A stretch of DNA of 61,961 nt from Candidatus Omnitrophota bacterium (GTDB lineage Bacteria > Omnitrophota > Gorgyraeia > Gygaellales > Profunditerraquicolaceae), in contig JBHPGR010000005.1 of NCBI GenBank assembly GCA_042570405.1, positions 1 to 61,961 on the forward strand. Reading direction: 5' to 3'. Shown one piece after another: positions 6,101-25,039 of this stretch. The notes under the pieces are model-generated. The model ran no database searches and was not told the origin of the DNA. It worked only from the letters and a program-made list of their open reading frames with translations. Within the stretch, counting starts at the first letter, position 1. The number at the start of each line of letters is the position of its first letter. The translations under genes and the position numbers were made by a program.

Positions 6101-9100
6101 CCGGTGGTTTACATCGATGCTGATTATGCATATATTGGACCGGAACATCATGTCGATTATGCCGATTTAGAATTTAAGATACAGGTTTGGGGTCCTGAAC
6201 AATATGTAGAAGGTATCCAGGTAGCATACCGTAAGATCATCCATCGCCATGAACTAGAAGAGATAAGGCTGTGGGAAGAGGAGATAAGGGTGTCGGAAAG
6301 CGGGACTAGAGTTAATCCGTATTTACAAGGTATCTCTTCTCTCAGCGATGTCAGAAACTGGATGCGCGACCATATAAATGATGCCATATGGCTTACCGAG
6401 TACCTGCATAATCAGGCAAATAATATAGCCAATGTGGGGGCAATTTACAGGCAGGGCAATAAACGGGAATATAAATGGGGCATCCGGCAATTGGCCTGGT
6501 CGTCACTTAAGGAGACCCCCAGCATTGCCGCCAGCCCCTCGCCCGCCGAGACGAAGCCGCCCGCCGCCGATCCGACAGAGCCGGACAGAATAAAACGGGT
6601 CAGCGATTTATTGGCTTCGGCAAGAACAAGCAGGCCCGAGCCGGAAGAGATAGTTGGCCTGACGGAAAAAGAAATCTTAGAGGGCTTACGGCAAAGCCGG
6701 TTTTTCGGTGACAACAGCGAAATAGCCATCACTGCCATCCTGAATTCGCTGACTATGCGAGAATTAAGCAGCCTCATAGGACAACAATATATCCCTCTGG
6801 TTGTAACGGAGATGCTTAAAATCCTGCCCCGGTACGATAAGGTTCTTATTGCCGGAAGGGATGGCGAATTATTTTATGATGCGTTGAAGACGGTATTGCA
6901 GGGGATGCCCCAGGAAAATAAGGTTGTACTCTTCCCGGGCAGTTTTGCACTGATGGAAAGTCTTGCCTCCCGTGAAGCAAACGCAGACGCCAGACGCTTT
7001 TTAGCGCAGTTCGGTATTACCGAGGAGGTAATTCTTGGAGGAGGAAAGATACTGGTTTTTGACACCGGTTTTTCTGGTTCTGTGGGGGGCATTTTACGTA
7101 CTACTGTGTTTAGATTATTCGGCAGCGGCGAAGGTTTGGAAAGCAAGTTAATTGCTACGCAGAAAAATAATGTCCGGGCTGCGGAGATCACTGGCTTTGC
7201 CACCGAAGCTGATGCGCTCTACCGGCAATTCCCCAAGACTCTACCTTTTATCATCCAGGAAGGATATCCCTGGAGGACTTCTTATCAGACGCCGGCAAAT
7301 TTTGTCGTCGCTTCTGCCCTGCAGTTATTACCGCATTACCACGGTCATTATAGATTAGGCAGAGATGCGGCCGGGAATTTAATAGCCATTCCCGAAAGAG
7401 CTGCTATCACCGAAGACATCGACGGCATATATAAGAAATTGGGGGTAAATGCTTCTGTAGTCAATCCGGCGGCAGCCATGCTTGTACAGCGCCGGGTAAT
7501 AGAATATTTTAAACAGCGCCGCCAAGAAGTTTTAGCCGCAGCAGGCCTGGTTGCCCCGGCGTTACCCGTTACTACCCTAGCCGCGCCGCCCGCCGCCGCG
7601 GCCGCGCCCGCCGCTGAAGACGTACCCAGCACATTAGCCCGGGCCATCGCTCAGCTACACGAAAGTCCGATAGGCGAAAATTTTACCATCGGAGGTAAAC
7701 CAGCGGATGCGGATTATATCATCCGGGTAGAAGAAAACCATGGTGTATTGTACGATACCCGCATTGTGCTACGCCGGCGCGCGGATAATAGGACAATGGT
7801 CTACTTAGAGATAAGTACGCAAGACGGAACTAATGTCAAGATGGGTTGGATAAAAACACCGGATGCGCAGGATCGGCGTAAAGGCATGGCCTCTTTACTG
7901 CTTGCAAAATTAAGAGAGGTGTTTCCTGACGGCAGATACCTGGAGACTGAGATAGCCGAAGAAGAGACCTTAAGGGGGGTGAGAAAAAATACTCGCTTTA
8001 CCTTTGCCATTACGCCGCTCTTCGGGTTATTTAGAGGCGCTGGCTGGGAAGCAGTAGAGGTGTATTATGTGGATCGCAATGGTAATCACCGACCCGACAT
8101 TCAAAAAGCCATGGAGGAAGACTTAAGAGAATTTAGACGGGCGGGGGGCCGTGGCCTTGATGATAGGGCGTATGGCCGAGTATGGTTAAAAGTCCGACCG
8201 AAAGGCCAAGAAGATGAATTTGATCCGAGTCTGGACGATCGGGAAATCGATGATGATGCAGACGCCGCCGCCGCGCCGAGGGCTGCCGATGCAAAAAAAG
8301 AATATTCCTCGATCCGCGAAAGAAGAACTGCTTATCTTACTGCCGCTAGAAATATTTATTATAGCATACACCCAGCCTTAGTAAGGAGCATCGAAGAAAA
8401 AGGATACGATTTTGCCGATATGGTAGCTACCCTGTACCCGGACTATTCCTCCGACTCCGATGGTTTTATCTTTCCATCAAGAGTAAGGGCTAATTATCCA
8501 AAGCTGGATGATAACGATAGGCGGGGGCTTAAGGATATAATGCAAAATAAGCTTGGGTCAGATGCAGAACAAGAGGAATTTGCTATGCAACAATTAGGGC
8601 GGGCATACGCTATTTGGCTCATCGAAAAAAGCGGGCTCGACCCCAATCATTGGAAACGGGTCCTTTCTGGCAACAAAAATCCTAATTATACGCCAGAATT
8701 TCAAAGGCCGTTTTTTGATTTAGGCGCGGGCACTAATCCTATCTTCTGTCTGCAGAATCTTTTATCAGTCCGTAGTTACTTTTTTGTAGATAGCTCTCCT
8801 TTTGTAAGGACATTTTTGGATGAGGCTATAAATATTTTAGGATTAGACCGTAATAAAGTACAGGCGATACAAGCCGATATAACAAAACCGGAAATATTCG
8901 AATCTTATCTTAAAGAAGGTAGCGTAGGGACCTTAAGGATATCAAATATAGGACCTTATTTACAAGATCAGGAGATGCCAGAGGGTTGGTACGACAGGAT
9001 TATAAAATGCATTGCTCCCGGAGGCCAACTTATTATAGAAACACTCGCACTTCGTGAGCCACTCATAGATACTAATCTACTAATTTTAAGAGAGTTTGAA

Positions 9101-10207: not shown

Positions 10208-10280
10208 GGGGGGTACGCGCCCCTGCCTTTTGGTTTATCAGCCGTAAAGGGTCAGATACGGCGCTACCCCTACCTAATTA

Positions 10281-10763
10281 TTAAAGTGACCTATCCAGGC
10301 TTCTATATTGTATTGCCTCTGAAATATGCCCGGCCAGGATCATATCAGAATCTGCTAAATCTGCGATAGTACGTCCTACCTTTAGGATCTTATTGTATGC
10401 CCGCGCTGAGAATTCCAGCTCTGCCATCGCCATCTTCAGCAGTTCCTGCGCTGCATCCTCCAGAAGACAATATTTTTTGATCAGCCCTGTATCCATCTGA
10501 GAGTTGTAGAAGATCCCCTCTGACTTAAAGCGCTCCCTTTGCAGGTTATGGGTTCTTGCCACACGCTCCTTGATCATCCTGGAGGGCTCAGCATCTTTTT
10601 GATCGCTGAGCTCCTTATATTTTACAGGCGGGACCTCGATGTGCATATCGATCCGATCCATCAGAGGGCCAGAGATCTTACTCATGTAGCTGTGGATCTT
10701 AGTAGTAGAGCATTGGCAGGCCTTAGTGGGGTGGGTGTAGTATCCGCATGGGCAGGGGTTCAT
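10281..10763 (-). pseudogene. comM: comM/yifB (Mg-chelatase-like AAA+ competence protein), C-terminal fragment detached by the island insertion
   Basis: It starts exactly at MNPCPCGYYTHPTKACQC...MDRIDMHIEV...FSARAYNKILKVGRTIADL, the canonical ComM C-terminus. The N-terminal fragment at 22345-23403 ends with the same AMNPCPCG. Confidence 0.85.
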
Positions 10764-10764
10764 T
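10743..10764. repeat. Left attachment-site core (attL)
   Basis: tccgcatgggcaggggttcatt is identical to 22345-22366. Confidence 0.8.
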
Positions 10765-10849
10765 CCTCAATTACAACCTCATAACCTTTTTCCTTCCAAC
10801 AAGTTAAAAATCTCAATTCTCAGCATTTCTCCCCCGAAAGGAGAACCTC

Positions 10850-11542
10850 ATGATACAGAATGATCCCAGGGTTAGGAATGGATTTGTTAAGCTCCCTCAT
10901 AACTTTTTTCACATTACGAGAGAGCTATCGGTAGCGGAAAAGTTTTTTCTTGTCTATTTGTTAAGCATGGACAATTTTTTCGGCGATAAAGGAGAAGTTT
11001 ACTTCACAGATGAAGAGGCCCGGAAGGATCTAAGAGTGGGGCGTAGCAGTATTAAACGATGGAGAGAGCGTCTCAAAACGACACTCTTTATTGATTATCT
11101 CCCCGGTAAATATAAAGGCATCGCAACGACTTACAACGTAAAGGGTATCAAAATGATGCTCTCTAATGAAAAGGAAAGGGGAAGGGTATCAAAACGAGAC
11201 GCGAAGCGTGCCAAAATGAATCATAAAGCGTATCAAGATGAACCAGAGAGGGTATCAAAATGGCACAACACTAAAGAAGTAAAAGAAGAAGTAAAGGAAG
11301 AAGGAAAGAAAGAGCCAAGCGAAGGCTCGGCTTCGGCTTGTCTGGTGAGCCAAGCCTCGCCTTCCTTAGGCCAAGACCTTAAAAACGGGTCTATAAGGGA
11401 AGATCTTAAAAAGGAGGCAGAGTCTTTACTTAGAGACAAGGGTCCCGATGAAGCGATAGGGTTTCTTCAGGGGCAGGGTGATCTTACACACTCAGAGGCC
11501 TACAATACTATTCTTGAGCTTCGGGGCGCGCAAGGTAAATAA
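10850..11542 (+). CDS. Island protein, probable winged-helix DNA-binding (replication- or regulator-like) with a Lys/Glu-rich tail
   Basis: An aggagaacctc Shine-Dalgarno sequence precedes the ATG. The N-terminus LSVAEKFFLVYLLSM...FTDEEARKDLRVGRSSIKRWRERL looks like phage or plasmid HTH proteins. No specific family was recognised. Confidence 0.45.
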   Translation: MIQNDPRVRNGFVKLPHNFFHITRELSVAEKFFLVYLLSMDNFFGDKGEVYFTDEEARKDLRVGRSSIKRWRERLKTTLFIDYLPGKYKGIATTYNVKGIKMMLSNEKERGRVSKRDAKRAKMNHKAYQDEPERVSKWHNTKEVKEEVKEEGKKEPSEGSASACLVSQASPSLGQDLKNGSIREDLKKEAESLLRDKGPDEAIGFLQGQGDLTHSEAYNTILELRGAQGK

Positions 11543-11570
11543 TTTAATGATTTAGTATATTCTGAGACTT

Positions 11571-11993
11571 ATGGGTAGAGAAAAGTGGTCAAGAAGGTAT
11601 ACGGTTGAGGATTGTGAGGTGATCAGCGTTACTGAACTTAAACACGGAGGACATCTTACAGATATTTCTGGAACTCTGCACGAGGTTCGCCTGCATTATT
11701 ACCGGAAGATAATGGCTGGGGAGTTTGAAGAATACGATTATCGTATTAAGCTAGAGCCTACACCTTGCTTCTTTGGAGGGCGTAGGTGGTGGTTTATATG
11801 TTGTAAGAATCCAGATGGCGTTTTCTGTGGTAATAGGGTTGGTAGGTTATATCTGCCTCCAAGGGCCAGATACTATAGCTGTAGGCATTGTCACAACTTA
11901 ACTTATACGAGTTGTAGGAAAAGCCACGATTTGGATAGCATATATAGATTAATAACTAGACTGGTAGGAGGAAAGGGGAGGATCCGGATATAA
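11571..11993 (+). CDS. Island zinc-ribbon protein of unknown function
   Basis: Cys clusters are PCFFGGRRWWFICC...FCGNRV...YYSCRHCHNLTY. This pattern is common in uncharacterised proteins of mobile elements. Confidence 0.5.
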   Translation: MGREKWSRRYTVEDCEVISVTELKHGGHLTDISGTLHEVRLHYYRKIMAGEFEEYDYRIKLEPTPCFFGGRRWWFICCKNPDGVFCGNRVGRLYLPPRARYYSCRHCHNLTYTSCRKSHDLDSIYRLITRLVGGKGRIRI

Positions 11994-12183
11994 TCCGAAG
12001 CATTGTAAAACAATGAATAGCAATAATCCTGAGTTTACCAACACTATAAAAAAGGTATGTAAATTACGCCTATTTACGGAGTTTAGTTACACTATAAAAA
12101 AGGGGGAAAGGTGGCAAACAATCCCCCCGGTCATTTATGAGGGGTTTTAACGAGGGGATATAGGGCAGTAAACAAACGAAGGT

Positions 12184-12738
12184 TTATTTAGAGAGGTTTG
12201 CTTTTAAAGCCTCAATGAGCTTTTGCCTTGCGAGTTCTTTATGTTCAGCGAGGAAACCTTTATATCTAATTATATTTGAACAATTGCATCTTGTCTGTCC
12301 ATCATTTTCAATAATGTCTGAATTGCATTTTAAACAGTAAATCTTGGCTTCTACGGTATTGGCAATCTCATAAGGTGTGAGATGAGGATATTTATCAGGA
12401 TTAGGGTAATAGAGGATTACCTGAGTACCCCCCCAATCATATGAGGTGCTGGTTTTCTCCTTGGGGCTACGCTCCTTGTTTAGCTCCTTCTTATAAAAAA
12501 TAGCAAAAAAAACGGAGATTAGGAGTGCTAAAAAATATGCTAATCTGGGTATTGTCTTTAGGATTTGCTCTATGGCTGAGGCGTAAACAAATATATCGTG
12601 AGCAATCTTTGCTCTCAGTTCTTCACCAAGGAATAATGATAGGAGTGTTCCTACTATTATTCCAATTGTTGTTCCAAGGGCTGTGGATGTACTTCTTGAC
12701 AGTATTTTCTTAAAAAAACTCATAGTCAATTTAACCAC
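12184..12738 (-). CDS. Island membrane-anchored protein with a C-terminal Cys cluster
   Basis: Two N-terminal hydrophobic helices are followed by YCLKCNSDIIENDGQTRCNCSN. Confidence 0.5.
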   Translation of the reverse strand: MVKLTMSFFKKILSRSTSTALGTTIGIIVGTLLSLFLGEELRAKIAHDIFVYASAIEQILKTIPRLAYFLALLISVFFAIFYKKELNKERSPKEKTSTSYDWGGTQVILYYPNPDKYPHLTPYEIANTVEAKIYCLKCNSDIIENDGQTRCNCSNIIRYKGFLAEHKELARQKLIEALKANLSK

Positions 12739-12790
12739 AAATTAACCCTTAAATCAACAAAAAGGGTGGTTTATTTGATAAGGAGGAACA

Positions 12791-12955
12791 ATGGCTTTAA
12801 GCGGAGTAAACACACTTTGTAAGGATTGCATCCAAGAGTGCAAGCAATGGAAGCAGATCACGGTTGTCAGGTGTCCGTTCTATCAACGCAAGCCGGATGC
12901 CAAGTTTGAAGATGTGCAGATTCCAAGCACAGCAGAATGGCAAAGAGGCTCGTAG
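12791..12955 (+). CDS. Unlisted 54-aa Cys-rich small ORF
   Basis: aaggagga lies 3 nt upstream of the ATG. The product is MALSGVNTLCKDCIQECKQWKQITVVRCPFYQRKPDAKFEDVQIPSTAEWQRGS, with TAG at 12953-12955. It falls below the size cut-off of the ORF track. Confidence 0.4.
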   Translation: MALSGVNTLCKDCIQECKQWKQITVVRCPFYQRKPDAKFEDVQIPSTAEWQRGS

Positions 12956-13036
12956 CGAGGCGATAATTAGGATTTAAGCGTTTATCGTATGTACGGCTTC
13001 TGGGGAGGGATCGTTCGTTGTAGGGCAGATTTAGGG

Positions 13037-13435
13037 CTATTGGCTTTTGCCGTACTCTCTTAATTGGTTCATGCCCTCTACTATCTGGTAACCAATTGCC
13101 ATCCAAATTATCGGCCTAATAATGTTTCCCCAAGAAAATGAGGCAATCAAGAACCTAACAGACCAAGACCCTTCATAGAATCCGACAAAGCATCCGTAAG
13201 GGTAGGGAAGAAATACCATAAAGGTAAAAAGCATATTTCTCCAAGACCTTTTGTTATCAATAGTGACAGCCAGAAAAGTTATAATCCCTACAAACGAGAG
13301 CAAAGCACCTATTACGAGTGTCCATCCCTCCCAATCGTTAGAGCTGTATCTGAATAGGCGGATTAAGCCATATATAAATGGGGGAATACAGGGCACTATA
13401 GCTTTAGCACTTAACTCAGTAGTATCTGTTTTCAT
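13037..13435 (-). CDS. Island polytopic membrane protein (about 4 TM)
   Basis: The profile is hydrophobic throughout. It is co-oriented with its neighbours, and its stop codon lies inside the 22-bp repeat at 13019-13040. Confidence 0.55.
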   Translation of the reverse strand: MKTDTTELSAKAIVPCIPPFIYGLIRLFRYSSNDWEGWTLVIGALLSFVGIITFLAVTIDNKRSWRNMLFTFMVFLPYPYGCFVGFYEGSWSVRFLIASFSWGNIIRPIIWMAIGYQIVEGMNQLREYGKSQ

Positions 13436-13470
13436 AAGTTAATCTTCTCTCCTGTAGGGCAGATTTAGGG

Positions 13471-14079
13471 CTATCGCTTAATTGTCCATCGGGTAAATCT
13501 TATTAAGGAGTAAGCAGGATAAGAAATTAATCCAAGAAGAGCAAGGAAAGAGAAGATTTGATAACAGATGCTTCTTATCTTTGCTATTTTTCTGTTGATG
13601 TTAAATCGCTTTTCCAGTTCCATTTGAACTTGTTGCTCAGGCATTCCATCTATGCTTTTGCCCAACACTCTCTCTATGGGCTTTTTATTCTCTTCTGTCA
13701 TTTCTACTTTATAGTTTTCGTCTACCGTCATTGATGTATTGATATCAAACTCAGGGAGCTTGAAAGCTGATGCGAGACCAAAGAATAATCCAGCTAATAC
13801 CAAAGATCCAACTATTAATGAGCCTTCTCTAATGAAAGTTTTCTTATGTTTCATAAATATATTCTTTAATTTAGATTTCACCCCTAAAACCTTTATCGCC
13901 CACATGACAAAACGGATGGCTCCATAAATAGACAAGACTAATATGGTATAGTAGAAAAAGCGATCCCGTCCCATGTTTGTGGAATAATAAAAAACAGTAA
14001 CAATCTTTCTAATTACAATAATCCCTAATACGATTAGTCCTTCTTTGGCAATTTTTCTTTGAAGCTTGCTCTTATCCAT
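13471..14079 (-). CDS. Island membrane protein (4 TM with a soluble loop)
   Basis: It has hydrophobic helices, and its stop codon lies inside the 22-bp repeat at 13453-13474. Confidence 0.55.
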   Translation of the reverse strand: MDKSKLQRKIAKEGLIVLGIIVIRKIVTVFYYSTNMGRDRFFYYTILVLSIYGAIRFVMWAIKVLGVKSKLKNIFMKHKKTFIREGSLIVGSLVLAGLFFGLASAFKLPEFDINTSMTVDENYKVEMTEENKKPIERVLGKSIDGMPEQQVQMELEKRFNINRKIAKIRSICYQIFSFLALLGLISYPAYSLIRFTRWTIKR

Positions 14080-14082
14080 ATC

Positions 14083-14364
14083 CTAATTGGTTGTTTTTCT
14101 ATTCTTTACTATTTTCATCCCGACCAAAAAAGTAATTATTACAAGGGGTATTGACAAAAAGCTATCAACTTTTTGTATATCAAAACTATTTTTTTCAAGG
14201 ATTTTTAAAAACCTTTCAAAGCCAATAGCTAATATAAATAATACTATGCCTTTAACAAGACCTGTCCAAGTAGCTTTTAAGTTTTTAAAGGACACTTTTT
14301 TAATAAAGAAATACATGCCCCAACCAAACAGGATTAGGGATGATAGGTGTGATGGCAGATTCAT
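14083..14364 (-). CDS. Island small membrane protein (3 TM)
   Basis: Its stop is 3 nt upstream of the next gene's start (operon-like). The mirror ORF at 14087-14371 on the + strand translates to low-complexity junk. Confidence 0.5.
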   Translation of the reverse strand: MNLPSHLSSLILFGWGMYFFIKKVSFKNLKATWTGLVKGIVLFILAIGFERFLKILEKNSFDIQKVDSFLSIPLVIITFLVGMKIVKNRKTTN

Positions 14365-14458
14365 ATTTTAATTATACCCCCAAAGGAGCCTTATTCCAAT
14401 AAAGAAAATTAGTTAGATTCCTTCATCCCCTGCGTCTATTGTATTAGGAGGTGGGGAG

Positions 14459-14608
14459 ATGAAGCTTACCAGGAAGCTAATTCAAGAAACTAAGGCGCTG
14501 ATCCGGCTACAACTATTCCTACAACACGAAGTAGGGCTAAAAGAGGATTTATCTCTTAAGGGCCTAAGGGTGCTTCTAAATGCCCTAAAACAGCAAAAAA
14601 AGGGTTGA
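14459..14608 (+). CDS. Unlisted 49-aa small ORF (helical, Leu/Lys-rich)
   Basis: aggaggtgggg precedes the ATG. The product is MKLTRKLIQETKALIRLQLFLQHEVGLKEDLSLKGLRVLLNALKQQKKG. Confidence 0.3.
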   Translation: MKLTRKLIQETKALIRLQLFLQHEVGLKEDLSLKGLRVLLNALKQQKKG

Positions 14609-14733
14609 TTTTAGCATATGGGAGGAGGATAATATCATTTACTACAAAGGGGTAGTTATGGATTTAAATCGGGTAAATTTAAGGCAATTCTCTAAAAAGG
14701 GGGTTGTCTTTTTTATTTGGAAGGAGAGGTAAA

Positions 14734-15138
14734 ATGAAAAAAATATACTGGTTGTTGTTGGGTGCATTATTTCTTACTGGTTGTTCTACCGCTGGCTCTC
14801 ACCTGAAGTCAGTTCAATCTGATAAAGCTGATAGGATAACTGTAGGAAAAGTCCAGCGTGAAATCCGTATTGGAATGCCATCCGCTAAAGTTATTGAAGC
14901 TTTGGGGTCTCCCAATATTGTGTCAACCGATGAAAATAGGTTAGAGGTTTGGGTATATGATAAGATTGCTACTGATATATCCTATTCAAGCAGCGAAGGT
15001 GGAGTTTGGTTGATACTTGGTAGTGTCGGAGGAAGTTCAGGAGCAACCTCAACTTCCCAGAGAACGCTGACTATAGTTGTAAAGTTTGACGCCGATAATA
15101 AAGTTCGTGATTTCGCTTATCATTCATCAAGCTTCTAG
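14734..15138 (+). CDS. BamE/SmpA-OmlA-like lipoprotein
   Basis: ggaaggagaggtaaa precedes the ATG. The lipobox is LFLTGC. KVQREIRIGMPSAKVIEALGSPN...VWVY resembles the SmpA/OmlA fold signature. The track start at 14704 is too far upstream. Confidence 0.55.
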   Translation: MKKIYWLLLGALFLTGCSTAGSHLKSVQSDKADRITVGKVQREIRIGMPSAKVIEALGSPNIVSTDENRLEVWVYDKIATDISYSSSEGGVWLILGSVGGSSGATSTSQRTLTIVVKFDADNKVRDFAYHSSSF

Positions 15139-15155
15139 GCGCAGCAGGCAATCAT

Positions 15156-15716
15156 ATGAGAAAAATTGTTAATCCTTTAAGGCGAGTCAGCATTATCATT
15201 ATATGCTTAGGCATAGTTGGATGCGCAAGTATTCCTACGGGGTTTCTAAAGCCAAGCGAAGGGTATTTAGAAGCAAGAGAATTACAAATGAGGCAATATG
15301 ATACAACTGAGCAGAAAAAGATCATAACTTCTGTTGCTGGGGTATTACAAGACTTGGGTTTCACTTTGGATGCAAGCGAAACGGAGGTAGGCTTTGTGGC
15401 GGCTTCAAAGAGAGCCGATGCAACTAGTAAAGGGCAGATGTTTTGGGCAGGATTCGCAGATGTTTTAAGTGCTTTAGGGGGCAGCTCTTCAAACGCGATG
15501 GCAGCGTGTGATTCTGTTCAAGTTATTAAGGCTTCAGTTATTAGTAAACTTAGTTTAGATGGTAGCAAAACAGTAGTGAGGGTGACTTTTCAACGCTTAG
15601 TCTGGAATGTAGGCGGTCAAATTAACAAAGTGGAAACCCTTAGCGATCCGGAAATATATCAAAAGTTTTACGATAACTTATCTAAAGCAATATTCTTGGA
15701 GGCCCAGAAAATATGA
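15156..15716 (+). CDS. Island lipoprotein, paralogue A
   Basis: The lipobox is GIVGCAS. The core RQYDTTEQKKIITSVAGVLQDLGFTLD aligns with the next gene. Confidence 0.6.
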   Translation: MRKIVNPLRRVSIIIICLGIVGCASIPTGFLKPSEGYLEARELQMRQYDTTEQKKIITSVAGVLQDLGFTLDASETEVGFVAASKRADATSKGQMFWAGFADVLSALGGSSSNAMAACDSVQVIKASVISKLSLDGSKTVVRVTFQRLVWNVGGQINKVETLSDPEIYQKFYDNLSKAIFLEAQKI

Positions 15717-16147
15717 GGAAACTAAAAAATTATTGTGGTATCATTTTAACATTATTACTGATTATTACATTATCTGGATGTGCAACACCAGCTATTAGGG
15801 CTTTTGAAATGACTGAAAGCCAGGTTAAATTAAGAAGCATACAGACGAGAGCTTTTGATACATCTGATAAGAAGAAAATGATGCAGACTGTAATAAGCGC
15901 GATGCAAGATTTAGACTTTGTGATTGATAAGGCTGATTTAATGCTTGGTTCAGTAAGTGGTTCTAAGTTCCTTGGGTATGCGGTCGTTACTATGACTGTA
16001 ATTGTTAGGCCAAGGGGGGAGAAGCAACTGTTAGTACGGGCAAATGCTCAGCATGGAATTAAATCTGTAGAAGATCCTCTAACATACCAAGATTTCTTTA
16101 CTGTATTAGAAAAAGCTTTATTCTTAACGGCTCATCAGGTTGATTAA
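15713..16147 (+). CDS. Island lipoprotein, paralogue B
   Basis: The lipobox is TLSGCAT. RAFDTSDKKKMMQTVISAMQDLDFVID and the C-terminal FLEAQ/FLTAHQ match paralogue A. It overlaps the previous gene by 4 nt. Confidence 0.6.
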   Translation: MRKLKNYCGIILTLLLIITLSGCATPAIRAFEMTESQVKLRSIQTRAFDTSDKKKMMQTVISAMQDLDFVIDKADLMLGSVSGSKFLGYAVVTMTVIVRPRGEKQLLVRANAQHGIKSVEDPLTYQDFFTVLEKALFLTAHQVD

Positions 16148-16232
16148 AAGTGGAAATCGGTTAGCAGGGTAGTATTAGATTTAGGGCTACTCTCTGTATG
16201 GGGGTTGCCTTATTTATTTGAATAAGGAGGGG

Positions 16233-16778
16233 ATGATGAAAGAAAAATCTTTAATAGTATTATCTGTTTTAATGCTTTGTTTTACTTGTTTTGCTCTTGC
16301 GGAAGAAGAAACATCTGATATTCCATCTCCATTAGATATTACAATAGAAGGAGCATTGCGGGATGCAAAAAGAGAACCAGGCATTAATATCAATCAACCG
16401 ATTTCAGTAGGAGATTATATTTACCAAGGAGCTCTTGGTTCAGTTATTAAAGCAGCCACATATATTTATGAAGGGGTTGAGAATAATGCAATAAAAACTA
16501 AAGTGAAATATTGTTCTCGGTTTAGTGATGAGTGTGACTTCAAGAAAGAGGCTAACTTAACGCAGTTAGATAGCTTTGGTATAGCTATTATGCGTGTTAG
16601 TGAAGGGGTGACCGTTGGTCCTGCGGGAGGTAGATGGTTGTTAGTTCAGGTTGTAGATGATACAAATAGGATAATCGTATTTGAGCTTACAATTAAACCA
16701 GACTCACGCATTAAATACGATAAAGAATATCAGGAACAATTATACGAAGAAGCTCTTACTCCAGATGTGTTTTATTAA
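16233..16778 (+). CDS. Island secreted protein, unknown function
   Basis: aaggaggggATGATG start context. The signal peptide is LIVLSVLMLCFTCFALA. Confidence 0.55.
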   Translation: MMKEKSLIVLSVLMLCFTCFALAEEETSDIPSPLDITIEGALRDAKREPGININQPISVGDYIYQGALGSVIKAATYIYEGVENNAIKTKVKYCSRFSDECDFKKEANLTQLDSFGIAIMRVSEGVTVGPAGGRWLLVQVVDDTNRIIVFELTIKPDSRIKYDKEYQEQLYEEALTPDVFY

Positions 16779-16848
16779 ATAAACTAATGGCACTCTATCA
16801 GAAAAAAGGTAATTGGTGTTGGAAGCAGTGGAGAGGGAAAAGGAGGGG

Positions 16849-17742
16849 ATGATGAAGAAGATTATCTTAGTAGCTATTCTATTAGCATTACCTTTAGCTT
16901 GTTTTGCTGAGACTGTTACTCTTAAATCTGGTGAAACTATAGAAGGTAAGATAGTTGAGAAGACAGATAAATATATAAAGATAGATTTTGAGGGTGTGTC
17001 TTTGACTTATTGGCTTGAGGATATAGAAAGCATTGGTGGTCAGCCTCTTTTATCTCCAGCGATTACTATAGATAAAGAACATCCGATTGCAAAAACAAAC
17101 ACGAAAACGGAAGATTTTACAGAAGATTCAAGTAGGGTCATTTCCAATGACCATAAAGATATTTTTGAAGAAAGACTCACCAAATTCCTAAAACAGCCAT
17201 CAGGTATAGCTGCTTTTATGCTTTTAAAGTTCTCTAAAGATTATCCCGATAGTAAATTTGCTCCTGACGCCGAATATTTTATTAAGTTTCTACAATATAT
17301 TGGAGCTGTAGGAGCAAGGGATAAAGAAGTGGCTTTAAAGTATTACAAAGAAATAGAGGAATTCGTTAATCTTCACCCAGATGGTTCATTGGATGAATTC
17401 ACTTGTAAAAAATATCTAGAGTTTGGAGGAGAAGGTTCATCTAGAACAGTATATATCCCTTATAGGAATATTTTGCAATTTATGCGTGGTGATATGGGGT
17501 TTTGGTTCATGGATCATCAGTCAGTCATTGATAATTTTTCTTTATTAAAAGATGAGCTGGACTTTAGTAAAGATAAGACAGGAATGCTTGCCTACGAGAT
17601 TTATTTCCCATTAGCGACAGCTTACAAGCAAACCAATAGATTAAACGATTGGAATAATATTGCTAAAGAAGCAGCAGAAAGATTACCGAATACGCTATGG
17701 CAGAGAATACAAGGAGTTTTTGATAAAAATAAATCTCAATAA
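16849..17742 (+). CDS. Island secreted protein, unknown function
   Basis: It has the same aaggaggggATGATGAAGAA start context. The signal peptide is ILVAILLALPLACFA. The N-terminal VTLKSGETIEGKIVEKTDKYIKIDFEGVSLTYWLEDIESI looks like a small beta domain. Confidence 0.55.
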   Translation: MMKKIILVAILLALPLACFAETVTLKSGETIEGKIVEKTDKYIKIDFEGVSLTYWLEDIESIGGQPLLSPAITIDKEHPIAKTNTKTEDFTEDSSRVISNDHKDIFEERLTKFLKQPSGIAAFMLLKFSKDYPDSKFAPDAEYFIKFLQYIGAVGARDKEVALKYYKEIEEFVNLHPDGSLDEFTCKKYLEFGGEGSSRTVYIPYRNILQFMRGDMGFWFMDHQSVIDNFSLLKDELDFSKDKTGMLAYEIYFPLATAYKQTNRLNDWNNIAKEAAERLPNTLWQRIQGVFDKNKSQ

Positions 17743-17843
17743 AGTATTCACTCGCTCCACCGTAAAGGAGCAGTTTAAGTAATGGCAATCTATCAGAAAA
17801 GAGGTAATTGGTGCTGGAAGCAGTGGAGGAGGAAAAGGAGGGG

Positions 17844-18218
17844 ATGATGAAGAAAAGGTCAATAGTATTAACAGCGATTGGGTTGTTGTTAATCATTGTT
17901 CCTATTTCCAATGTCTTTATACATTTTGTTTGCTATCAAAAGATTGCACAACCAGTATTTGTAACAATTTTATTGTTTTGTATATCGGTTCTTTCTGGAG
18001 CAGGGGTATTGCTTCTAAAGGAATGGGGCAGGAAGTTGGCAGTTATCTTGTCTGTTTTTGGTGTCATTGTCGGTTTAGGAGCTGCTTTTGTAATTCCAGG
18101 GATGGTTTTAGGCCATCCACTGGGGTTGATAATTACTTTATCGGGGACAGTCTACTTTGGTTTAATTTTGTATTACTTAACCCGTCCCCAAGTAAAAATC
18201 CAGTTTAAGAAGGAGTAG
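17844..18218 (+). CDS. Island membrane protein (4 TM)
   Basis: It has the same conserved leader and start context, and the product is hydrophobic throughout. Confidence 0.55.
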   Translation: MMKKRSIVLTAIGLLLIIVPISNVFIHFVCYQKIAQPVFVTILLFCISVLSGAGVLLLKEWGRKLAVILSVFGVIVGLGAAFVIPGMVLGHPLGLIITLSGTVYFGLILYYLTRPQVKIQFKKE

Positions 18219-18294
18219 CAGTGGCAATCTATCAGAAAAAGGGTAATGACTGTCCTAACGAAGAAACTATGGCTCAGTTTAAGAAGGAGGAGTG

Positions 18295-18696
18295 ATGGGA
18301 AAGGGATGGATAAATAATCCTATTGTCAGAAGTATCGTTAGCGTTGCTTTGGGCGCAATAATTGGTAGTATAATTACAGGTACATATCAGATCTATATTT
18401 ATAATAAACAAAAAGCAGAATTAAATAGCACCAAGATGGTAGTTGAAGATAAAAACCTAGAAATCGCCGAATTCAGGAAAGAGCTGCGCGAATGTCAAAA
18501 GAAAATGCCAGAGATGCCTGTTACAGTGGTAGATCCTGCTACCGGGAATCAGTTATATATCGGTAGGCCTATCGGGAAAGAGCTGCACTATGAATTTCCG
18601 ATAACCCTAAATGACGGACAGGGTTCGTACAGGATAGATCAGTATAGGTTATTGAATGAATTTGAGGGCAAATTAATTATTCTAAGAAAGAAATGA
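18295..18696 (+). CDS. Island single-pass membrane protein
   Basis: aagaaggaggagtg precedes the ATG. The N-terminal TM is IVRSIVSVALGAIIGSIITG. Confidence 0.5.
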   Translation: MGKGWINNPIVRSIVSVALGAIIGSIITGTYQIYIYNKQKAELNSTKMVVEDKNLEIAEFRKELRECQKKMPEMPVTVVDPATGNQLYIGRPIGKELHYEFPITLNDGQGSYRIDQYRLLNEFEGKLIILRKK

Positions 18697-18911
18697 AGAA
18701 TCCTATGATTACGGTTATAGCTTCAGTTTTATTTATTATCTGGACTGTTCTTTGCGGAGGAATGGGGTATGTAATCAATCAATATCTCAAAGATAATTAT
18801 TTTGGCGGATTTCCCTATGAGCATATTTTGAAAGCAAGTCCTTTTGTAGCACTTGTACTCGGAATATACGCAATATCAACCCTACTTAGAAGATTTCACC
18901 AGGAGAAATGA
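18693..18911 (+). CDS. Island small 2-TM protein
   Basis: It shows 4-nt overlap coupling on both sides and has two hydrophobic helices. Confidence 0.5.
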   Translation: MKNPMITVIASVLFIIWTVLCGGMGYVINQYLKDNYFGGFPYEHILKASPFVALVLGIYAISTLLRRFHQEK

Positions 18912-19339
18912 ATAGAAATAGTCCATCAGAAGGCACCTTAGTTTCCGATAAACAATGGAGCGTGGTTGAGAGTGAGGTGTGCAGGGCTACTAATTTTGAT
19001 GATACTGCTACCATTCAGATTGAGTGTAGAAAAATACCCCATAAGATAAAAGGTTTTATTTCTCACAAGGAAGACCTTATGCATCTAAGGGAGGCGTTTG
19101 ATGCAGCAGATGCAAAGAAGGACTTGTTAGAGGTGTTGGTTATTTGGACGAAGACACACTATAAGAATGGTCTGTTTAGGCTTATGTCGTTTTCTATGCC
19201 CAAACTAATAGTATGGGTCTGTAAGAAGGGTGCCTATGAATTCATCAATTACCCAGCCCACAAGCCAGAATTACAAGGCGAAGCAAGATTTGAAATGCAG
19301 AAGCCAGTTGTTGAATTTAAGCCAGGAGTAATGGGGTAG
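18908..19339 (+). CDS. Island soluble protein, unknown function
   Basis: It is translationally coupled to the previous gene. No motif was recognised. Confidence 0.45.
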   Translation: MNRNSPSEGTLVSDKQWSVVESEVCRATNFDDTATIQIECRKIPHKIKGFISHKEDLMHLREAFDAADAKKDLLEVLVIWTKTHYKNGLFRLMSFSMPKLIVWVCKKGAYEFINYPAHKPELQGEARFEMQKPVVEFKPGVMG

Positions 19340-19417
19340 ACGATTAGGGTACTAAAGGAGAAATGAAATGAAAAGGTAGTAAGCTGGTATATTAGTTTTG
19401 ATAGTGCTGGGCTGGAC

Positions 19418-19849
19418 TTAACCGTTCAGCCCTTTTTTATTTAGTCTTTTTTCTTCAATTTTTTTAGCGCGTTTTATTTTACGAGCGAAGGAAGGATGGT
19501 TTTTAACAAGGAAATCCCTAAATAAACCCTCTGTTTTTTTATAGTTAGGGAATTTTTTTTCCATAAATTTATCTTCCAGTTCAAGCCAAGTATATATGTC
19601 AATATCCAGGTGTTTAATTATTTTTAGGAATGTTTCGGGAGAAGGGAGCTTGTAGCCTTTTTCAATTTGGGTAATATAGACAGGATTTACCTTGACCAGC
19701 TTAGCCAATTCGTAAACCTTTAATCCTTTTCTCTGCCGGTTAGAACGCAGTAGTTGACCGATTGTTAGCTTCCCCAAGACCTCTAAATCCCTTGAGGATC
19801 CTACCTTCTTTTTAATCATACCAATATTATACAAGAACAACCTAACCAT
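19418..19849 (-). CDS. XRE-family HTH regulator (cI-like repressor candidate)
   Basis: LTIGQLLRSNRQRKGLKVYELAKLVKVNPVYITQIEKGYKLPSPETFLKI is a classic HTH_3 motif. It is divergent from a second XRE gene. Confidence 0.7.
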   Translation of the reverse strand: MVRLFLYNIGMIKKKVGSSRDLEVLGKLTIGQLLRSNRQRKGLKVYELAKLVKVNPVYITQIEKGYKLPSPETFLKIIKHLDIDIYTWLELEDKFMEKKFPNYKKTEGLFRDFLVKNHPSFARKIKRAKKIEEKRLNKKGLNG

Positions 19850-19866
19850 TCAAGGCATTTATTTAC

Positions 19867-19896
19867 TTGACAAACTAGCTAAATATATGTTATACT
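19867..19896 (+). promoter_or_regulatory. Near-consensus sigma70-type promoter facing the Cro-like gene
   Basis: TTGACA (19867-19872), an 18-nt spacer, then TATACT (19891-19896). Confidence 0.5.
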
Positions 19897-20027
19897 AACT
19901 AACAAGGTTAGGCAGTATCAGCTTGATAGACGAGGAAACAGGGGCAAGTCAACGGAACGCTGGGTCGGAAGGTAAAATTTTTTACCTTGGGCATTACGAA
20001 AAACATATTTTAAGGAGGTGAGGCTAG

Positions 20028-20231
20028 ATGATAAGAGTAAATACAGCATTAAAGTTAGCTCGGATAAGTCGCAACCTTAGACAAATTGATTTAGCCCGGG
20101 AACTTGGGGTATCCGAAAATTTGGTTAGTGCTTGGGAGACTAGCAGGGCGATCCCCCTTCCTGATATGCGTTACCGAATAGCTAAGGTTTTGGGGTCAAC
20201 CCCTGAGGTGTTATTCAAAGAGCGTTATTAA
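20028..20231 (+). CDS. XRE-family HTH regulator (Cro-like)
   Basis: ALKLARISRNLRQIDLARELGVSENLVSAWETSRAIP. A taaggaggtgagg Shine-Dalgarno sequence precedes the start. Confidence 0.75.
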   Translation: MIRVNTALKLARISRNLRQIDLARELGVSENLVSAWETSRAIPLPDMRYRIAKVLGSTPEVLFKERY

Positions 20232-20244
20232 CCTGGAGGCTATA

Positions 20245-20766
20245 ATGAAAATCTGTTTGTACTGCAGGGTAAGTAAAAGATTAGGCCAAACAGTTGAAAA
20301 TCAGATCCCAATTTTGGAGAATTGGGCTAAACAGCAGAGGTTTGACTATGAGATCTTAACAGAGGCTGAAAGCACTCGTAACGCAAGGCCTGTCAGGGAG
20401 AGCATTGTCCAGAAGTTAAGAAACCGAGAAGCTGATGGGGTTGCCTGCGTCCGGTTAGATCGCTGGCTGAGGAGTTTTACTGATGTAGTGGTGGTTAAAG
20501 AGCTTGTTGACCGGGGTTGTTCTTTCTACTTCGTTAATCAGGGCTTTCACTTCTGCCGGGATAATAATAACGCTATGACAAGCTTGCAGCTTAATATGCT
20601 GAGCGCATTCGCAGAGTTTGAGCGGGAACTGATCCGGGAACGCACCTTTGAGGGTTTAGACCGGGCGAAAGCTGAGGGCAAAAAATTAGGCAGAAAAGTC
20701 GGTAGTAAGGATAAAAAAGAAAGGCGTAAAAGCGGTTATTGGAGAAGATACAGTAAGGACAAATAG
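20245..20766 (+). CDS. Small serine recombinase (resolvase/invertase catalytic domain, with a basic tail instead of a clear HTH)
   Basis: It has N-terminal CLYCRVSKRLGQTVENQ (the Y-x-R-V-S nucleophile motif) and the conserved EFERELIRERT helix E. Confidence 0.75.
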   Translation: MKICLYCRVSKRLGQTVENQIPILENWAKQQRFDYEILTEAESTRNARPVRESIVQKLRNREADGVACVRLDRWLRSFTDVVVVKELVDRGCSFYFVNQGFHFCRDNNNAMTSLQLNMLSAFAEFERELIRERTFEGLDRAKAEGKKLGRKVGSKDKKERRKSGYWRRYSKDK

Positions 20767-20777
20767 GGAGGTAAGAG

Positions 20778-20888
20778 ATGGCAAGCAAACTTTCAATTAA
20801 GGTGGTAAGGACAATCAAGTTGCAAGATGGTGAACGGAAAAAGCGCAGGGAGAAGATTCTTGAAGCACTCTTAAAACAAAATGGCTAA
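20778..20888 (+). CDS. Unlisted 36-aa basic small ORF overlapping the integrase start (possible directionality-factor-like protein; speculative)
   Basis: gggaggtaagag precedes the ATG. The product is [36 protein letters not shown]. Its stop overlaps the ATG region of 20881. Confidence 0.25.
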   Translation: MASKLSIKVVRTIKLQDGERKKRREKILEALLKQNG

Positions 20889-22338
20889 GATTCAGGCGCT
20901 TTATAGTAGGGTTTCTACTGATATGCAGAGGGAGAAGAACTTTTCGGTTCCTCGCCAGAAGAAGTGGCTTGATGAAAAAGCTAAACAATTAGGCTTTAAG
21001 AACACCAAGCATTATACCGATAATGGCTACTCTGCAACAGATTCAGACCGCCCTGCTTACAGCCGACTTATTGAGAACATTGGGGTAGGATTAGTTGATA
21101 CTGTATTAGTTTATAAAAACGACAGAATTGCAAGGGGGATCAGGGATTTAATAACTTTCTTGGATCTACTCAGCAACTATGGCGTAAAGTTTATCTCTAT
21201 TACGGAAAACTTTAATACATCTACCCCTACGGGTAACGCAATGATGATGTTTGCTGGGGTATTGGCTCAATGGGAAAGGGATATGGTTGTTGAGCGAGTT
21301 AAGGACGCTATGTGGGATATGGCAAGAGCGGGGAAATTTTGCGGTGGGCAACCACCATACGGGTATGATGTTAAGGATAAAAACCTCGTTCCCAACAAGG
21401 AGCAAGCAGATATACTTAACCAGATGTTTAGAATGTTTCCTGAAAAAAAATCCTTTAGAAGCATTGTTCATTGGCTTAATAAGCAAGGATATACTACGAA
21501 GCGAGGAACTTCTTTTGCTCAATCAACGATACGCAGGTATCTTACTAACCCGATCTACAGGGGGTATTTTACATATGGCAAGCGAGCAGGGAATTCAAAG
21601 AAAGTTCTGCCAAAAGAAGAATGGCTTACTATTAAGGGTAGTTTTGAACCGATAATATCCGAAGAACTTTTTGATCAGGTACAAGCAATCATTAGGCAAC
21701 GAGATTATGTAAGGCAAGACCTGACGGGTGAAGTCTATCTTTTGTCTGGCTTAATCAGGTGTGGTCAATGTGGTGGCAGGATGGCTGGATCTTACGCACA
21801 GAAAGAAAATGGCAAAAGATATTTCTACTATAAGTGCCATAACCATGATTCTAAGGGGGAATCAATTTGTGAGGGAAATACTGTAAGGCGGGATTATATT
21901 GAGGAGCAAGTGCTAGAAGAAGTCAATAGTTATGCAATCCAATTTGAAGAGGGCGAAGCGAAGAATATTATGGCTCATCACAATACCACAAACGAATTAA
22001 AACGGATAAATGCTACTATCAGTAGCTTGGAAAGGAAGCAGAATAAAGCCCTTGATTTGGCTCTTGATGGGGCATTACCTAAAAAACTACTCGTAAAGAG
22101 GATGGATGAATTAACAGAGGATCTTGATAGAGCAAAGTTACAGAAGGATAGGCTTACGATAGAAGCAGGAAATCACTCACGAAATAAGCGCGTTAATGTG
22201 TTGGAGCGGGTCAATCAGCTCAACGGAAAACTCAAAACGCTTCCAAGAACTACACAGAAAGAGATACTCAGGCAGCTAATTAAGGAAATTAGATATTATA
22301 AAACAGGGGAGATAGAAATTGAGAAATATGAGTTGTAA
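20881..22338 (+). CDS. Large serine recombinase (integrase)
   Basis: It has [11 protein letters not shown] at the N-terminus, a resolvase domain, a recombinase domain and a zinc ribbon (CGQCGG...YYKCHNH...C), followed by a coiled coil. The gene ends 7 nt from attR. Confidence 0.9.
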
Positions 22339-23403
22339 GCCCGTTCCGCATGGGCAGGGGTTCATTGCGCAGGCTAACATAAAGGAGGCAGGGAAGGTTA
22401 GCGTCCTGGCGATCCTTGAGACGCGCATGCTCCCATCCTCCAATGGCTGCCTTAGTGCCTCAAGGCACGCCCGCCTAAACTCAGGGAATTCATCTAAAAA
22501 GAGAACCCCGCGGTGGGCAAGGCTGATCTCACCCGGCTGGGGAAGTGAGCCTCCGCCGGTAAAGGCGGCGTCTGATATATTGTGGTGAGGGTTGCGGAAG
22601 GGCCTGGTGGCTAATATACCTTTTTTAAGGAGCCTGGCTACAGAGTGTATGGTAGTGATCTCCAGCGCCTCAGGTAAAGATAGCTCCGGCATAATGCTGG
22701 GGATCCTTTTTGCCAGCATAGTCTTGCCGCTCCCCGGAGGGCCGATAAATAGGATATTGTGCATCCCGCTAGCCGCCACCTCCAGCGCCCTTTTAGCCAG
22801 GCGCTGGCCCTTGACCTCTGCAAAATCCACCCGATAGTGTGCGTTGCGTCTAAATTGCTCCTGCCAGTTTATTCGGAAGGGCTTAAAGAGCCCGGGCTCA
22901 TTTAAGAAGTGTACGCTCTCTGCCAGGGTCTTGGTTGGCCAGGCATTGATTTCAGTGATTATGGCTGCCTCCGGAGCGTTCTGCCAGGGCAGGATTATGT
23001 TCTTTAGGCTGCTCTTTGCCAGCGCCGTGCAGACCGGCAGGATCCCCGGGGTGGGGCGAAGGCTGCCATCCAGGGATAGTTCACCGAGGATACAGTATTC
23101 AGGTAGATGCAGGCTGTTCATTTGGCCGGTTGCAGCCAGTATCCCCAGGGCGATCGCCAGGTCAAAGCTTGCCCCCTCCTTTCTGATGTCAGAGGGGGCC
23201 AGGTTTATAGTGATACGTGCCTGCGGCCACTTGAACCCTGAGTTTTTTATGGCGGATTTGATCCGCTGCCTGCTCTCTCTTACGCAGATATCAGGCAGGC
23301 CCACCAGCGTTACCGCCGGCAGGCCGGAAGCCACATCTATTTCAATATCAACCGGATAAGCCTCAATTCCCAATAGCCCGAAACTCCTCGCTCTTGCCAG
23401 CAT
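22276..23403 (-). pseudogene. comM: comM/yifB N-terminal fragment. Genuine comM sequence ends at about 22345, and the last roughly 23 codons are read-through into the island.
   Basis: It has a Lon-like N-domain ([17 protein letters not shown]), Walker A GPPGSGKT, and LFLDEFPEF. After ...[10 protein letters not shown] the sequence switches to the unrelated [11 protein letters not shown]. Confidence 0.85.
22345..22366. repeat. Right attachment-site core (attR)
   Basis: tccgcatgggcaggggttcatt is identical to 10743-10764. Confidence 0.8.
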
Positions 23404-23743: not shown

Positions 23744-24190
23744 ATGGATAATATCTTTACTCAGATCATCGAAAATAAGATCTTTATGGTTACCCTGCTT
23801 GCCTGGGCGGCTGCGCAGGCCATAAAGGTACTCATCGATATCATCCGCGAGAGGAGATTTGATTTCCGCTGGTTCGTAGGTACAGGCGGGATGCCTTCAA
23901 GCCACGCCTCGGGAGCAGCCTGTTTGGCAACAAGTATAGGCTTGTACTACGGCTTTAACAGCGTTTATTTTGCGTTGGCTGCCTCTTTTGCGCTTGTGGT
24001 AATGTTTGATGCGCAGGGTGTGCGCCGAGCTTCAGGAAGACAGGCGCGGATATTAAACCAGATCACTAAGGATATTTACTGGAAGGGAAGGATGCAGGAG
24101 GGGAGCCTGCGCGAACTTATCGGGCACACTCCCGTAGAGGTCTTAGCGGGATTCGCACTGGGTACTCTGATCGCCTTTCTGGCGCGATAG
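23744..24190 (+). CDS. Divergent PAP2-family membrane protein (YuiD-like)
   Basis: Motifs are GGMPSSHAS, MFDAQGVRRASGRQA and GHTPVEVLAG. Confidence 0.75.
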   Translation: MDNIFTQIIENKIFMVTLLAWAAAQAIKVLIDIIRERRFDFRWFVGTGGMPSSHASGAACLATSIGLYYGFNSVYFALAASFALVVMFDAQGVRRASGRQARILNQITKDIYWKGRMQEGSLRELIGHTPVEVLAGFALGTLIAFLAR

Positions 24191-24201
24191 AAGGAGATTT
24201 C

Positions 24202-25026
24202 GTGAGGAATAAGTCAATAATCATCATTCTTGCGGTTGTAGTAGTTCTTGTAGCGGTATTTCTGCTCGCCGGAGTCAAGAGAGGGGCTCTTTGTCCGATA
24301 CAGATCGGTACTGTTACTGAGCCGGCAGCGGGGCTGGTAAAGCAGGCTGAAGAGGCAGAAAACTCCGGTAATTTATTAGAAGCCAAGAGTATATATCAGG
24401 CGTTGGCAGATGACTTTCCCGGCTCAGGGCGCGCTATTGACTGGCAGAGTAAGGCTGAAGAATTGAATATACGCCTCCTCTTCTCTGCGACGATAACCCC
24501 GGGCAGCGAACTTTACGAGATAAAACCCGGTGATTCCCTTTCTAAAATCGCCAAAAAATTTAATACCACCGCAGGACTGATCCGGCGCAGCAACCGTATC
24601 ACCGGAGACAAGATATACCCCGGCAGGAAGATCAAGGTCCGCACCGCCGGTTTTACGATCGCGGTGGATAAATCCCAGAATATCCTCTTTTTAAAGAGCG
24701 ACGAAGAAATAGTCAAGACCTATAATGTCGCCACCGGCGAGAATAATTGTACTCCCGTCGGGACCTTTAAAATAGTCAATAAGCTTATTGATCCTCCGTG
24801 GCACAAGGAAGGCGTAGGCGAGGCCATACCTGCCGGGGACCCCAGGAATATCCTGGGTTCGCGCTGGATGGGCATTGACCGCCCCGGTTACGGCATACAC
24901 GGCACGACCGACCCCGGGTCTCTGGGCAGGCAGGTCACCGACGGGTGCATCCGCATGTCTAACCGTGATGCCGAGGAGCTCTACGCAATCGTTCCTATGG
25001 GCACGGAAGTCACGGTATTCGATTAA
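24202..25026 (+). CDS. LysM-domain L,D-transpeptidase (YkuD family)
   Basis: The LysM motif is [25 protein letters not shown]. The catalytic motif is [22 protein letters not shown]. It has a GTG start. Confidence 0.85.
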
Positions 25027-25039
25027 TCCCCCCAAAAAT

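Follow-up and report, generated by a model that had tools for sequence, protein, structure and literature searches.

A probable integrative element with a large serine recombinase interrupts comM in a Candidatus Omnitrophota bacterium

The gene annotated as 'magnesium chelatase / ATP-dependent protease' (ComM/YifB) is the target of 12.4% of predicted site-specific large serine recombinases (LSRs), and competence genes are enriched among the targets of these enzymes (Durrant et al. 2022, PMC10083194). In Wolbachia, the sr1WO recombinases of phage WO integrate into the magnesium chelatase gene (PMC9203015). Because of these two precedents, LSR insertion into comM has to be regarded as a known phenomenon. 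Here we analyse a whole metagenomic contig of 61,961 bp from a Candidatus Omnitrophota bacterium (GenBank assembly GCA_042570405.1, contig JBHPGR010000005.1, positions 1 to 61,961 of the forward strand; the whole stretch is called the window below), in which comM is split by an 11.6-kb element that encodes an LSR. The main result is confirmatory, in that it extends the known LSR preference for comM/YifB to the Omnitrophota, a poorly studied phylum of very small, possibly host-dependent bacteria, for which our literature search found no report of LSR insertion into comM. Among the best-conserved codons of comM, it also singles out one dinucleotide as the predicted point of insertion.

The comM-targeting elements of the Durrant survey share with the window element the enzyme class, the target gene and the outcome, namely a split gene with a short identity between the attachment (att) sites. 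Coverage of Omnitrophota is not shown in that survey, and the window LSR is at most 32% identical to integrases in phage records; the exact site (a TG dinucleotide within the codons for NPCPCG) and the accessory module were worked out in the present analysis. The core sequence of our att sites was not found in the supplementary text of Durrant et al. Phage WO resembles the window element in its LSR, in the gene halves that flank the prophage and in its single-domain HTH_XRE regulators, but it is a complete tailed phage of tens of kb, whereas the window element measures 11.6 kb and lacks structural genes. In Listeria, phages A118 and phi10403S are inserted in comK; here, too, a competence gene is interrupted by means of a serine integrase and becomes whole again when the prophage excises precisely (PMC3556126, cited in PMC12378983). 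The Listeria case differs in that the gene is the regulator comK and not the helicase gene comM, and in that the element is a full phage. Reversible excision of the comK prophage during infection was reportedly shown experimentally by Rabinovich and colleagues in 2012. In the skin (SpoIVCA/sigK) and SPbeta (SprA-SprB/spsM) elements of B. subtilis, excision by an LSR likewise rebuilds an interrupted gene. There, excision is under the control of the host's sporulation programme and takes place in a terminal cell, whereas the window element has a control region of its own and its relatives carry variable cargo.

Outside the LSRs, the AbaR/Tn6022-type islands of Acinetobacter have the same target, and the disruption of comM has been proposed to protect the island from removal by transformation (PMC11441513). 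The initial annotation of this DNA offered AbaR as a precedent, which holds for the target gene but not for the mechanism, since these islands are Tn7-like transposons and not site-specific integrases (PMC11441513), and their excision is not conservative. Diverse elements in comM have been catalogued for many Proteobacteria and were read as protection from removal by transformation (PMC4774983, PMC12378983, PMC11441513).

The window contains two exact copies of a perfect 22-bp direct repeat, TCCGCATGGGCAGGGGTTCATT, at 10743-10764 and 22345-22366, just where the initial annotation had placed them. A search of the window for a third copy at up to two mismatches found none, and 100 shuffles gave none either. 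Identity between the two copies ends sharply at both repeat edges. They enclose an element body of 11,580 bp of unique DNA (10765-22344; 11,602 bp from repeat start to repeat start) with a GC content of 0.34-0.44, against about 0.50 in the flanks. The first copy forms the junction with the C-terminal fragment of comM, which lies on the minus strand at 10281-10763 (residues 347-506 of the rejoined protein); its open reading frame (ORF) begins with MNPCPCGYY, the first letters from 10763 being MNPCPCGYYTHP. The second copy joins the element to the N-terminal fragment, which occupies 22367-23403 on the minus strand and provides residues 1-346 outside the repeat. An earlier extent for this fragment, from 23403 to about 22345, agrees with ours as far as comM is concerned, but the ORF itself reads on, running 22 codons past comM into element DNA to end at 22276.

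Joining 10281-10764 to 22367-23403 gives 1521 nt that encode, in frame, a protein of 506 aa; the initial annotation had foreseen the in-frame junction, with a length of about 507 aa that is corrected here. The rejoined protein has ChlI, Mg_chelatase and Mg_chelatase_C domains and is a ComM/YifB orthologue. Its best database match, an intact 506-aa protein from another Candidatus Omnitrophota genome named 'YifB family Mg chelatase-like AAA ATPase' (P0001), aligns with it end to end, with no gaps and 88% identity, straight across the junction, and the best 120 named ComM matches are all from Omnitrophota. Given this gap-free alignment, the two pieces are halves of one gene and not separate paralogues. 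A conservative excision would restore the comM reading frame exactly.

Relatives with an intact comM, whose search had been proposed earlier, do exist: besides P0001, a second contig (L066) carries an uninterrupted comM whose product is 70% identical and thus represents an empty site. Upstream of it lie DUF212, LysM/YkuD, ACCA and PadR genes, the same genes that are found beyond the N-terminal fragment in the window (23744-26502). This places the N-terminal fragment in its native position and shows that the uninterrupted arrangement exists in relatives; the synteny is taken from the 70%-identical orthologue, as an exact look-up of the P0001 contig returned no match. The split gene shows no sign of decay. 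In a relative-rate check against 112 intact outgroup ComM proteins it is not more diverged than P0001 (+0.8 points for the N-terminal half, -2.2 points for the C-terminal half), and all seven of its departures from columns conserved at 95% or more are also present in P0001. The lack of extra divergence means that the insertion is either recent or reversible, and the data do not tell which.

The product of 20881-22338 (plus strand, 485 aa) is a genuine large serine recombinase. It matches the Resolvase (PF00239, E 2.1e-34), Recombinase (PF07508, E 5.5e-29) and Zn_ribbon_recom (PF13408, E 3.1e-17) families of Pfam, which bears out the assignment of the element to a serine integrase. In an alignment of 27 relatives, R10, the Ser nucleophile S12 and the Zn-ribbon cysteines C294, C297, C319 and C330 are invariant. 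The AlphaFold model (mean pLDDT 83) comprises a catalytic domain, a long connecting helix, DBD1 and a zinc domain, with a helical hairpin at residues 369-446 (helices 369-395 and 401-446) inserted between the strands of the zinc domain. Its best structural matches over the full length are the SPbeta, Bxb1, PhiC31 and LI integrases, with E values down to 1e-24 and SPbeta as the best, and sequence matches to solved structures agree with the assignment. Close relatives were found neither in phage records (at most 32% identity) nor, by a scan with an integrase family profile, among IMG/VR viral contigs (at most 29% identity).

Eight relatives of the enzyme, at 37-68% identity and on Omnitrophota-like contigs, all adjoin a comM that is broken at the same NPCPCG codons. 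They are L067 (68% identical to the window LSR), L030/L036 (57%), L032 (48%), L033-35/L037-38 (46%), L039/L040 (45%), L043 (40%), L041 (39%) and L069 (37%), the last on a contig labelled Dehalococcoidales. Both junctions are present in L039, where two exact copies of a 19-bp sequence, ATGAACCCCTGCCCGTGCG (4821-4839 and 16245-16263), enclose an insert of 11.4 kb. The only genes common to the family elements are the integrase, a small recombinase and a helix-turn-helix (HTH) gene, while the cargo varies. For genome annotation, this implies that 'truncated Mg-chelatase' genes beside recombinases are likelier to be att junctions than pseudogenes. Of the nine elements, six (window, L067, L036, L032, L041 and L043) have an integrase gene convergent with comM, and three (L038, L039 and L069) have one that is co-directional. 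The two orientation groups are interleaved in a rough integrase tree, and it appears that attP has changed its orientation with respect to the integrase gene at least twice. Just upstream of the integrase and its preceding micro-ORF, L043 also has a 142-aa ORF (9923-10351) about 50% identical to the catalytic N-terminal part of the window LSR, which looks like a duplicated or truncated recombinase fragment. A giant ORF adjoins the C-terminal end of comM in two of the contigs, at 386-10207 (plus strand, 3273 aa) in the window and at 8010-13482 (minus strand, more than 2515 aa) in L069.

Comparison of the junctions brackets the point of exchange. On the element-derived side of L038, GAACGCT precedes TGCCCGTGCGG, so that the match to comM is lost inside the Pro codon immediately 5' of TG; on the element side of L069 it is lost one codon farther 5'. 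The host side of L041 has the sequence ATGAATCCGTG, and its element side continues with TGGTTGC and diverges directly after TG, while in L032 and L067 the identity at the junction extends to ...CCCGTGC. If the position is common to the family, the departures of L038 and L041 confine the exchange to C(C/T)TG(C/T). The reconstructed attP of the window has perfect 7-bp arms in inverted repeat, GTTGTAA at 22332-22338, overlapping the integrase stop codon, and TTACAAC at 10771-10777, each 16 nt from the TG. The same 16-nt spacing to TTACAAC is found in L067, and in the attP of L039 a different pair of arms, TGTCT and AGACA, lies at a distance of 19 nt on either side of that TG. From junction comparison and arm symmetry, we predict that the crossover takes place at the TG of the first Cys codon in MNPCPCG. 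The predicted position is the TG at the centre of CCCTGCCC, which in the comM sense reads AAC CCC TG/C CCA TGC; on the plus strand it would correspond to CA at 10753-10754 in the first core copy and to 22355-22356 in the second. In the window element, attP matches comM over 10 bp to either side of this TG, which explains the identical 22-bp core at both junctions. The relatives of the element carry less, so the long identity is a trait of the window element and not a requirement of the enzyme.

The 22-bp core occurs exactly in 29 genomes of distant phyla (hits L001-L029, from Bacteroidales, Clostridia, Saccharimonadia, Nitrospirota, Campylobacterales, Pseudomonadales and others), in 28 of them within an uninterrupted ...MNPCPCG... 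frame, and the peptide MNPCPCGY is present in 93 of 119 close ComM proteins. A DNA stretch so unusually invariant makes a dependable landing site. Conservation of the core at the nucleotide level is unusually strong for a protein-coding stretch. In one of the matching genomes, a metagenome-assembled Bacteroidales genome (L017), only a C-terminal fragment of comM is found (3518-4030), and about 20 nt 5' of the motif, after ...IIMLVASMNPCPCG, its sequence ceases to match comM; there is no integrase within 3.5 kb upstream, where the neighbour is a DUF5916/CBM9 gene, and the fragment could reflect another type of insertion or a deletion.

Disruption of comM lowers transformation in Acinetobacter and Vibrio (PMC11441513, PMC12378983). 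By analogy, an element that disables ComM may be less likely to be removed through transformation, and loss of transformation in the host of the window is a reasonable expectation. Should a disrupted comM prevent transformation here, as is the case in Proteobacteria, the element would mark the Omnitrophota as a party to the conflict between mobile elements and natural competence. The window also encodes uptake functions, as the initial annotation had pointed out for comEA and comEC: a ComEA-like ORF at 47902-48261 and a ComEC-like gene with the Pfam Competence domain at 48258-49679. The ComEC-like protein is short (473 aa, with DUF4131 and Competence domains), and a metallo-beta-lactamase domain was not detected in its ORF.

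Large serine integrases depend on a directionality factor for excision (PMC12286644). Each of the nine family members has a basic micro-ORF of 35-64 aa that ends at or overlaps the integrase start; in the window it encodes 36 aa (20778-20888, plus strand), and its stop overlaps the start of the integrase gene. Its homologues lie at 203-358 in L067, 9877-10008 in L036, 9862-10011 in L032, 9799-9993 in L041, 10348-10455 in L043, 10506-10631 in L038, 8067-8180 in L039 and 5901-6011 in L069, and they share the motif [IV]K[IV]..[IV]K[IVL]...E.KKRR.KILE.L. Nucleotide differences at the first, second and third codon positions amount to 0.44, 0.43 and 0.66, a pattern that indicates translation of the micro-ORF. 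A structure model from the single sequence is one long helix and is not informative.

A pair of sister elements points to a possible role for the micro-ORF. In L070 (1252-3274) and L071 (1-2011), an HTH_3 gene and a small recombinase that are 80-87% identical to those of the window are followed by a tyrosine integrase, the start of which is overlapped by an HTH_17 gene (Pfam excisionase-type helix-turn-helix). The integration module thus appears to have been swapped on a backbone common to the window, L070 and L071. As the slot of the micro-ORF is held in these sister elements by an Xis-like HTH_17 gene, we consider the micro-ORF a candidate directionality factor. That it is the cognate factor and would form, with the integrase, a 1.6-kb reversible cassette for the 22-bp comM site, which could allow reversible control of ComM, is a tentative proposal that we hold to be rather doubtful. 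If it were true, the micro-ORF would be, to our knowledge, the smallest directionality factor known. On the same condition, the integrase, the micro-ORF and a target that is identical across phyla would make a possible compact integration tool. Known directionality factors have no common fold, and most bind where DBD2 meets the coiled coil (PMC12286644).

The small serine recombinase in the same operon (20245-20766, plus strand, 173 aa) has no domain besides the catalytic one; where an HTH would usually follow, there is a conserved basic tail, GKxLGRPxGSKDKKxRRKSGY. Its family is large, with 2294 matches at E<=1e-8, and the members named here are of 170-200 aa and have intact catalytic residues. 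We considered this protein as an integrase-specific partner or directionality factor and set it aside, since the homologues of 80-87% identity precede tyrosine integrases (L070, 1431-1958; L071, 199-720) and others have no integrase nearby (L068, 343-912). Small recombinases thus occur with serine integrases, as also in L038 (9950-10504), L039 (7535-8065) and L069 (5383-5904), with tyrosine integrases, and alone. Resolution of multimers of the circular form is a possible role.

The analysis demonstrates the anatomy of the locus, the enzyme family, the target site across the family and the lack of decay in comM. We read the insert as an integrated mobile element, with a rough probability of 0.88: its LSR would have inserted it by conservative attP x attB recombination into comM at the TG of the first Cys codon, and attL x attR recombination by the same enzyme, with the help of a directionality factor, would rejoin comM exactly. 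Beyond that, we infer how active the element is at present, how it is regulated, which product is its directionality factor and what phenotype it causes. Several points weigh against this reading. The assignment of the TG rests on comparing different elements and on attP symmetry, and the dyad symmetry of attB is weak by generic dyad-symmetry scoring. No excised, empty or circular form of the element was found: the core had no match in viral contigs, and a degenerate 42-nt pattern for attB, attP, attL and attR had none in metagenome contigs, a collection from which the source contig itself is absent, so that this search is uninformative for the source population. The directionality factor is at best a candidate, most cargo proteins have no family match, and a phage origin finds no support, as the viral and phage collections gave no LSR relative above 32% identity. 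Finally, we know of no documentation of a role of ComM, or of natural transformation itself, in Omnitrophota.

Some of these points would suit an element that, after a single integration, has lost the ability to excise, for instance for want of a functional directionality factor, with comM as a pseudogene in the making. Neither attB nor attP forms were found in the metagenome contig search just mentioned, family searches recognised no excisionase among the element ORFs, and structural or transfer genes are missing. All ORFs of the element are nevertheless open, the two repeats match perfectly, the integrase retains its catalytic and Zn residues, comM has not decayed and the conserved micro-ORF is intact as well, and we regard such an immobilised remnant as unlikely.

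Still less probable, in our view, is a switch that serves the host, in which regulated, reversible excision would toggle ComM in the way of the 'active lysogeny' of the Listeria comK phage, skin or SPbeta. The intact halves of comM without extra divergence, the intact integrase and att cores, the comEA and comEC genes in the window and a conserved micro-ORF coupled to the integrase as a possible directionality factor could all be brought forward for it, but the same facts suit a recent or still active selfish insertion. Moreover, the element has its own repressor/Cro-like control and a replication gene, a host regulatory signal was not found, the close orthologues P0001 and L066 are uninterrupted, and relatives share only the integration module while their cargo varies, which gives no sign of domestication. 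Its own control and replication genes, together with relatives that carry different cargo, give it the look of a self-interested element and not of a domesticated one. As for an assembly artefact, in which a separate circular element was joined into comM through the 22-bp sequence, it could appeal to the shortness of the repeat and to a window that is a single metagenomic contig, but it would need two independent false joins exactly between the halves of one gene, typical assembly k-mers exceed 22, and the architecture recurs in independent assemblies that carry eight related integrases, one of them with both junctions, so that we give it practically no weight.

The gene content of the element agrees in part with that of satellites. 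Like phage-inducible chromosomal islands (PICIs) and other satellites of about 10-15 kb, it combines an integrase, a divergent repressor pair and a replication gene with iterons, and has no virion genes. Packaging-redirection or small-terminase genes were not recognised in it, although most of the cargo is without detectable homology, and it has no known helper. Its gene order differs from that of PICIs, the integrase standing at the far end of its operon and reading out towards att. Searches of the element with PHROG and Pfam gave no match to terminase, portal, capsid, tail or other structural genes, and its largest ORF other than the integrase encodes 309 aa, too small for a terminase or a portal. 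On these two grounds we rejected a complete temperate tailed phage. PADLOC found no credible defence genes in the cargo, and Rfam RNAs and tRNAs were absent from the element. On this gene content, the insert is best described as a small replicative integrative element that may be a satellite.

The integrase operon reads on the plus strand and begins with an HTH_3 Cro-like regulator (20028-20231), followed by the small recombinase, the micro-ORF and the integrase. Divergent to it is an HTH_3 repressor-like gene (19418-19849, minus strand), and back-to-back promoter-like sites lie at 19826-19896, TTGACA-18-TATACT on the plus strand (11/12, with an extended -10 TG) and TTGAAT-16-TATAAT on the minus strand (10/12). 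A perfect 9-bp palindrome, AAGGTAAAA-TT-TTTTACCTT, at 19969-19988, between the strong plus-strand site and the Cro-like gene, is a possible operator or hairpin. The divergent regulator pair would control the operon of four genes. The DnaD-like replication or helicase-loader protein (230 aa; PHROG 186, E 4.5e-10) is encoded at 10850-11542 on the plus strand, at the other end of the element. As there is no terminator-like site between the integrase and the att core, and no promoter-like site in the 85 bp between core copy 1 and the DnaD-like gene, the operon would in the circular form read across attP into this gene. Circularisation could in this way lead to expression of the replication gene, which bears four iteron-like repeats, AAGGGTATCAAAATGA, at 11141-11263, with spacings of 41, 44 and 22 nt. 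Their position inside the gene resembles a phage or plasmid origin embedded in an initiator gene.

The remainder of the element is cargo, apart from a Cys-rich protein of 140 aa with no family match (11571-11993, plus strand). Four ORFs for hydrophobic, membrane-type proteins occupy 12184-14364 on the minus strand, and a 22-nt perfect repeat, TGTAGGGCAGATTTAGGGCTAT, is found at 13019-13040 and 13453-13474, after two of them. A second block (14704-19339, plus strand) contains lipoprotein-like or secreted-protein-like ORFs and small membrane proteins with repeated upstream regions. It starts with a weakly BamE-like ORF (14704-15138) and continues with two adjacent, lipobox-bearing ORFs (15156-15716 and 15713-16147), apparent paralogues with alike C-terminal ends (…DP..YQ.F…L.KA.FL.A…), and with two further ORFs of the lipoprotein or secreted type (16218-16778 and 16813-17742). 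A 78-nt upstream region, which includes the ribosome-binding site and the first codons and is conserved at 92% identity, precedes successive cargo genes (16782-16859, 17777-17854 and 18217-18247). The arrangement of the 78-nt and 22-nt repeats suggests a cassette-like duplication of cargo. In the L039 element, the cargo includes a DUF4136 lipoprotein-PDZ gene (14002-14967), and the cargo of the family as a whole seems biased towards envelope proteins.

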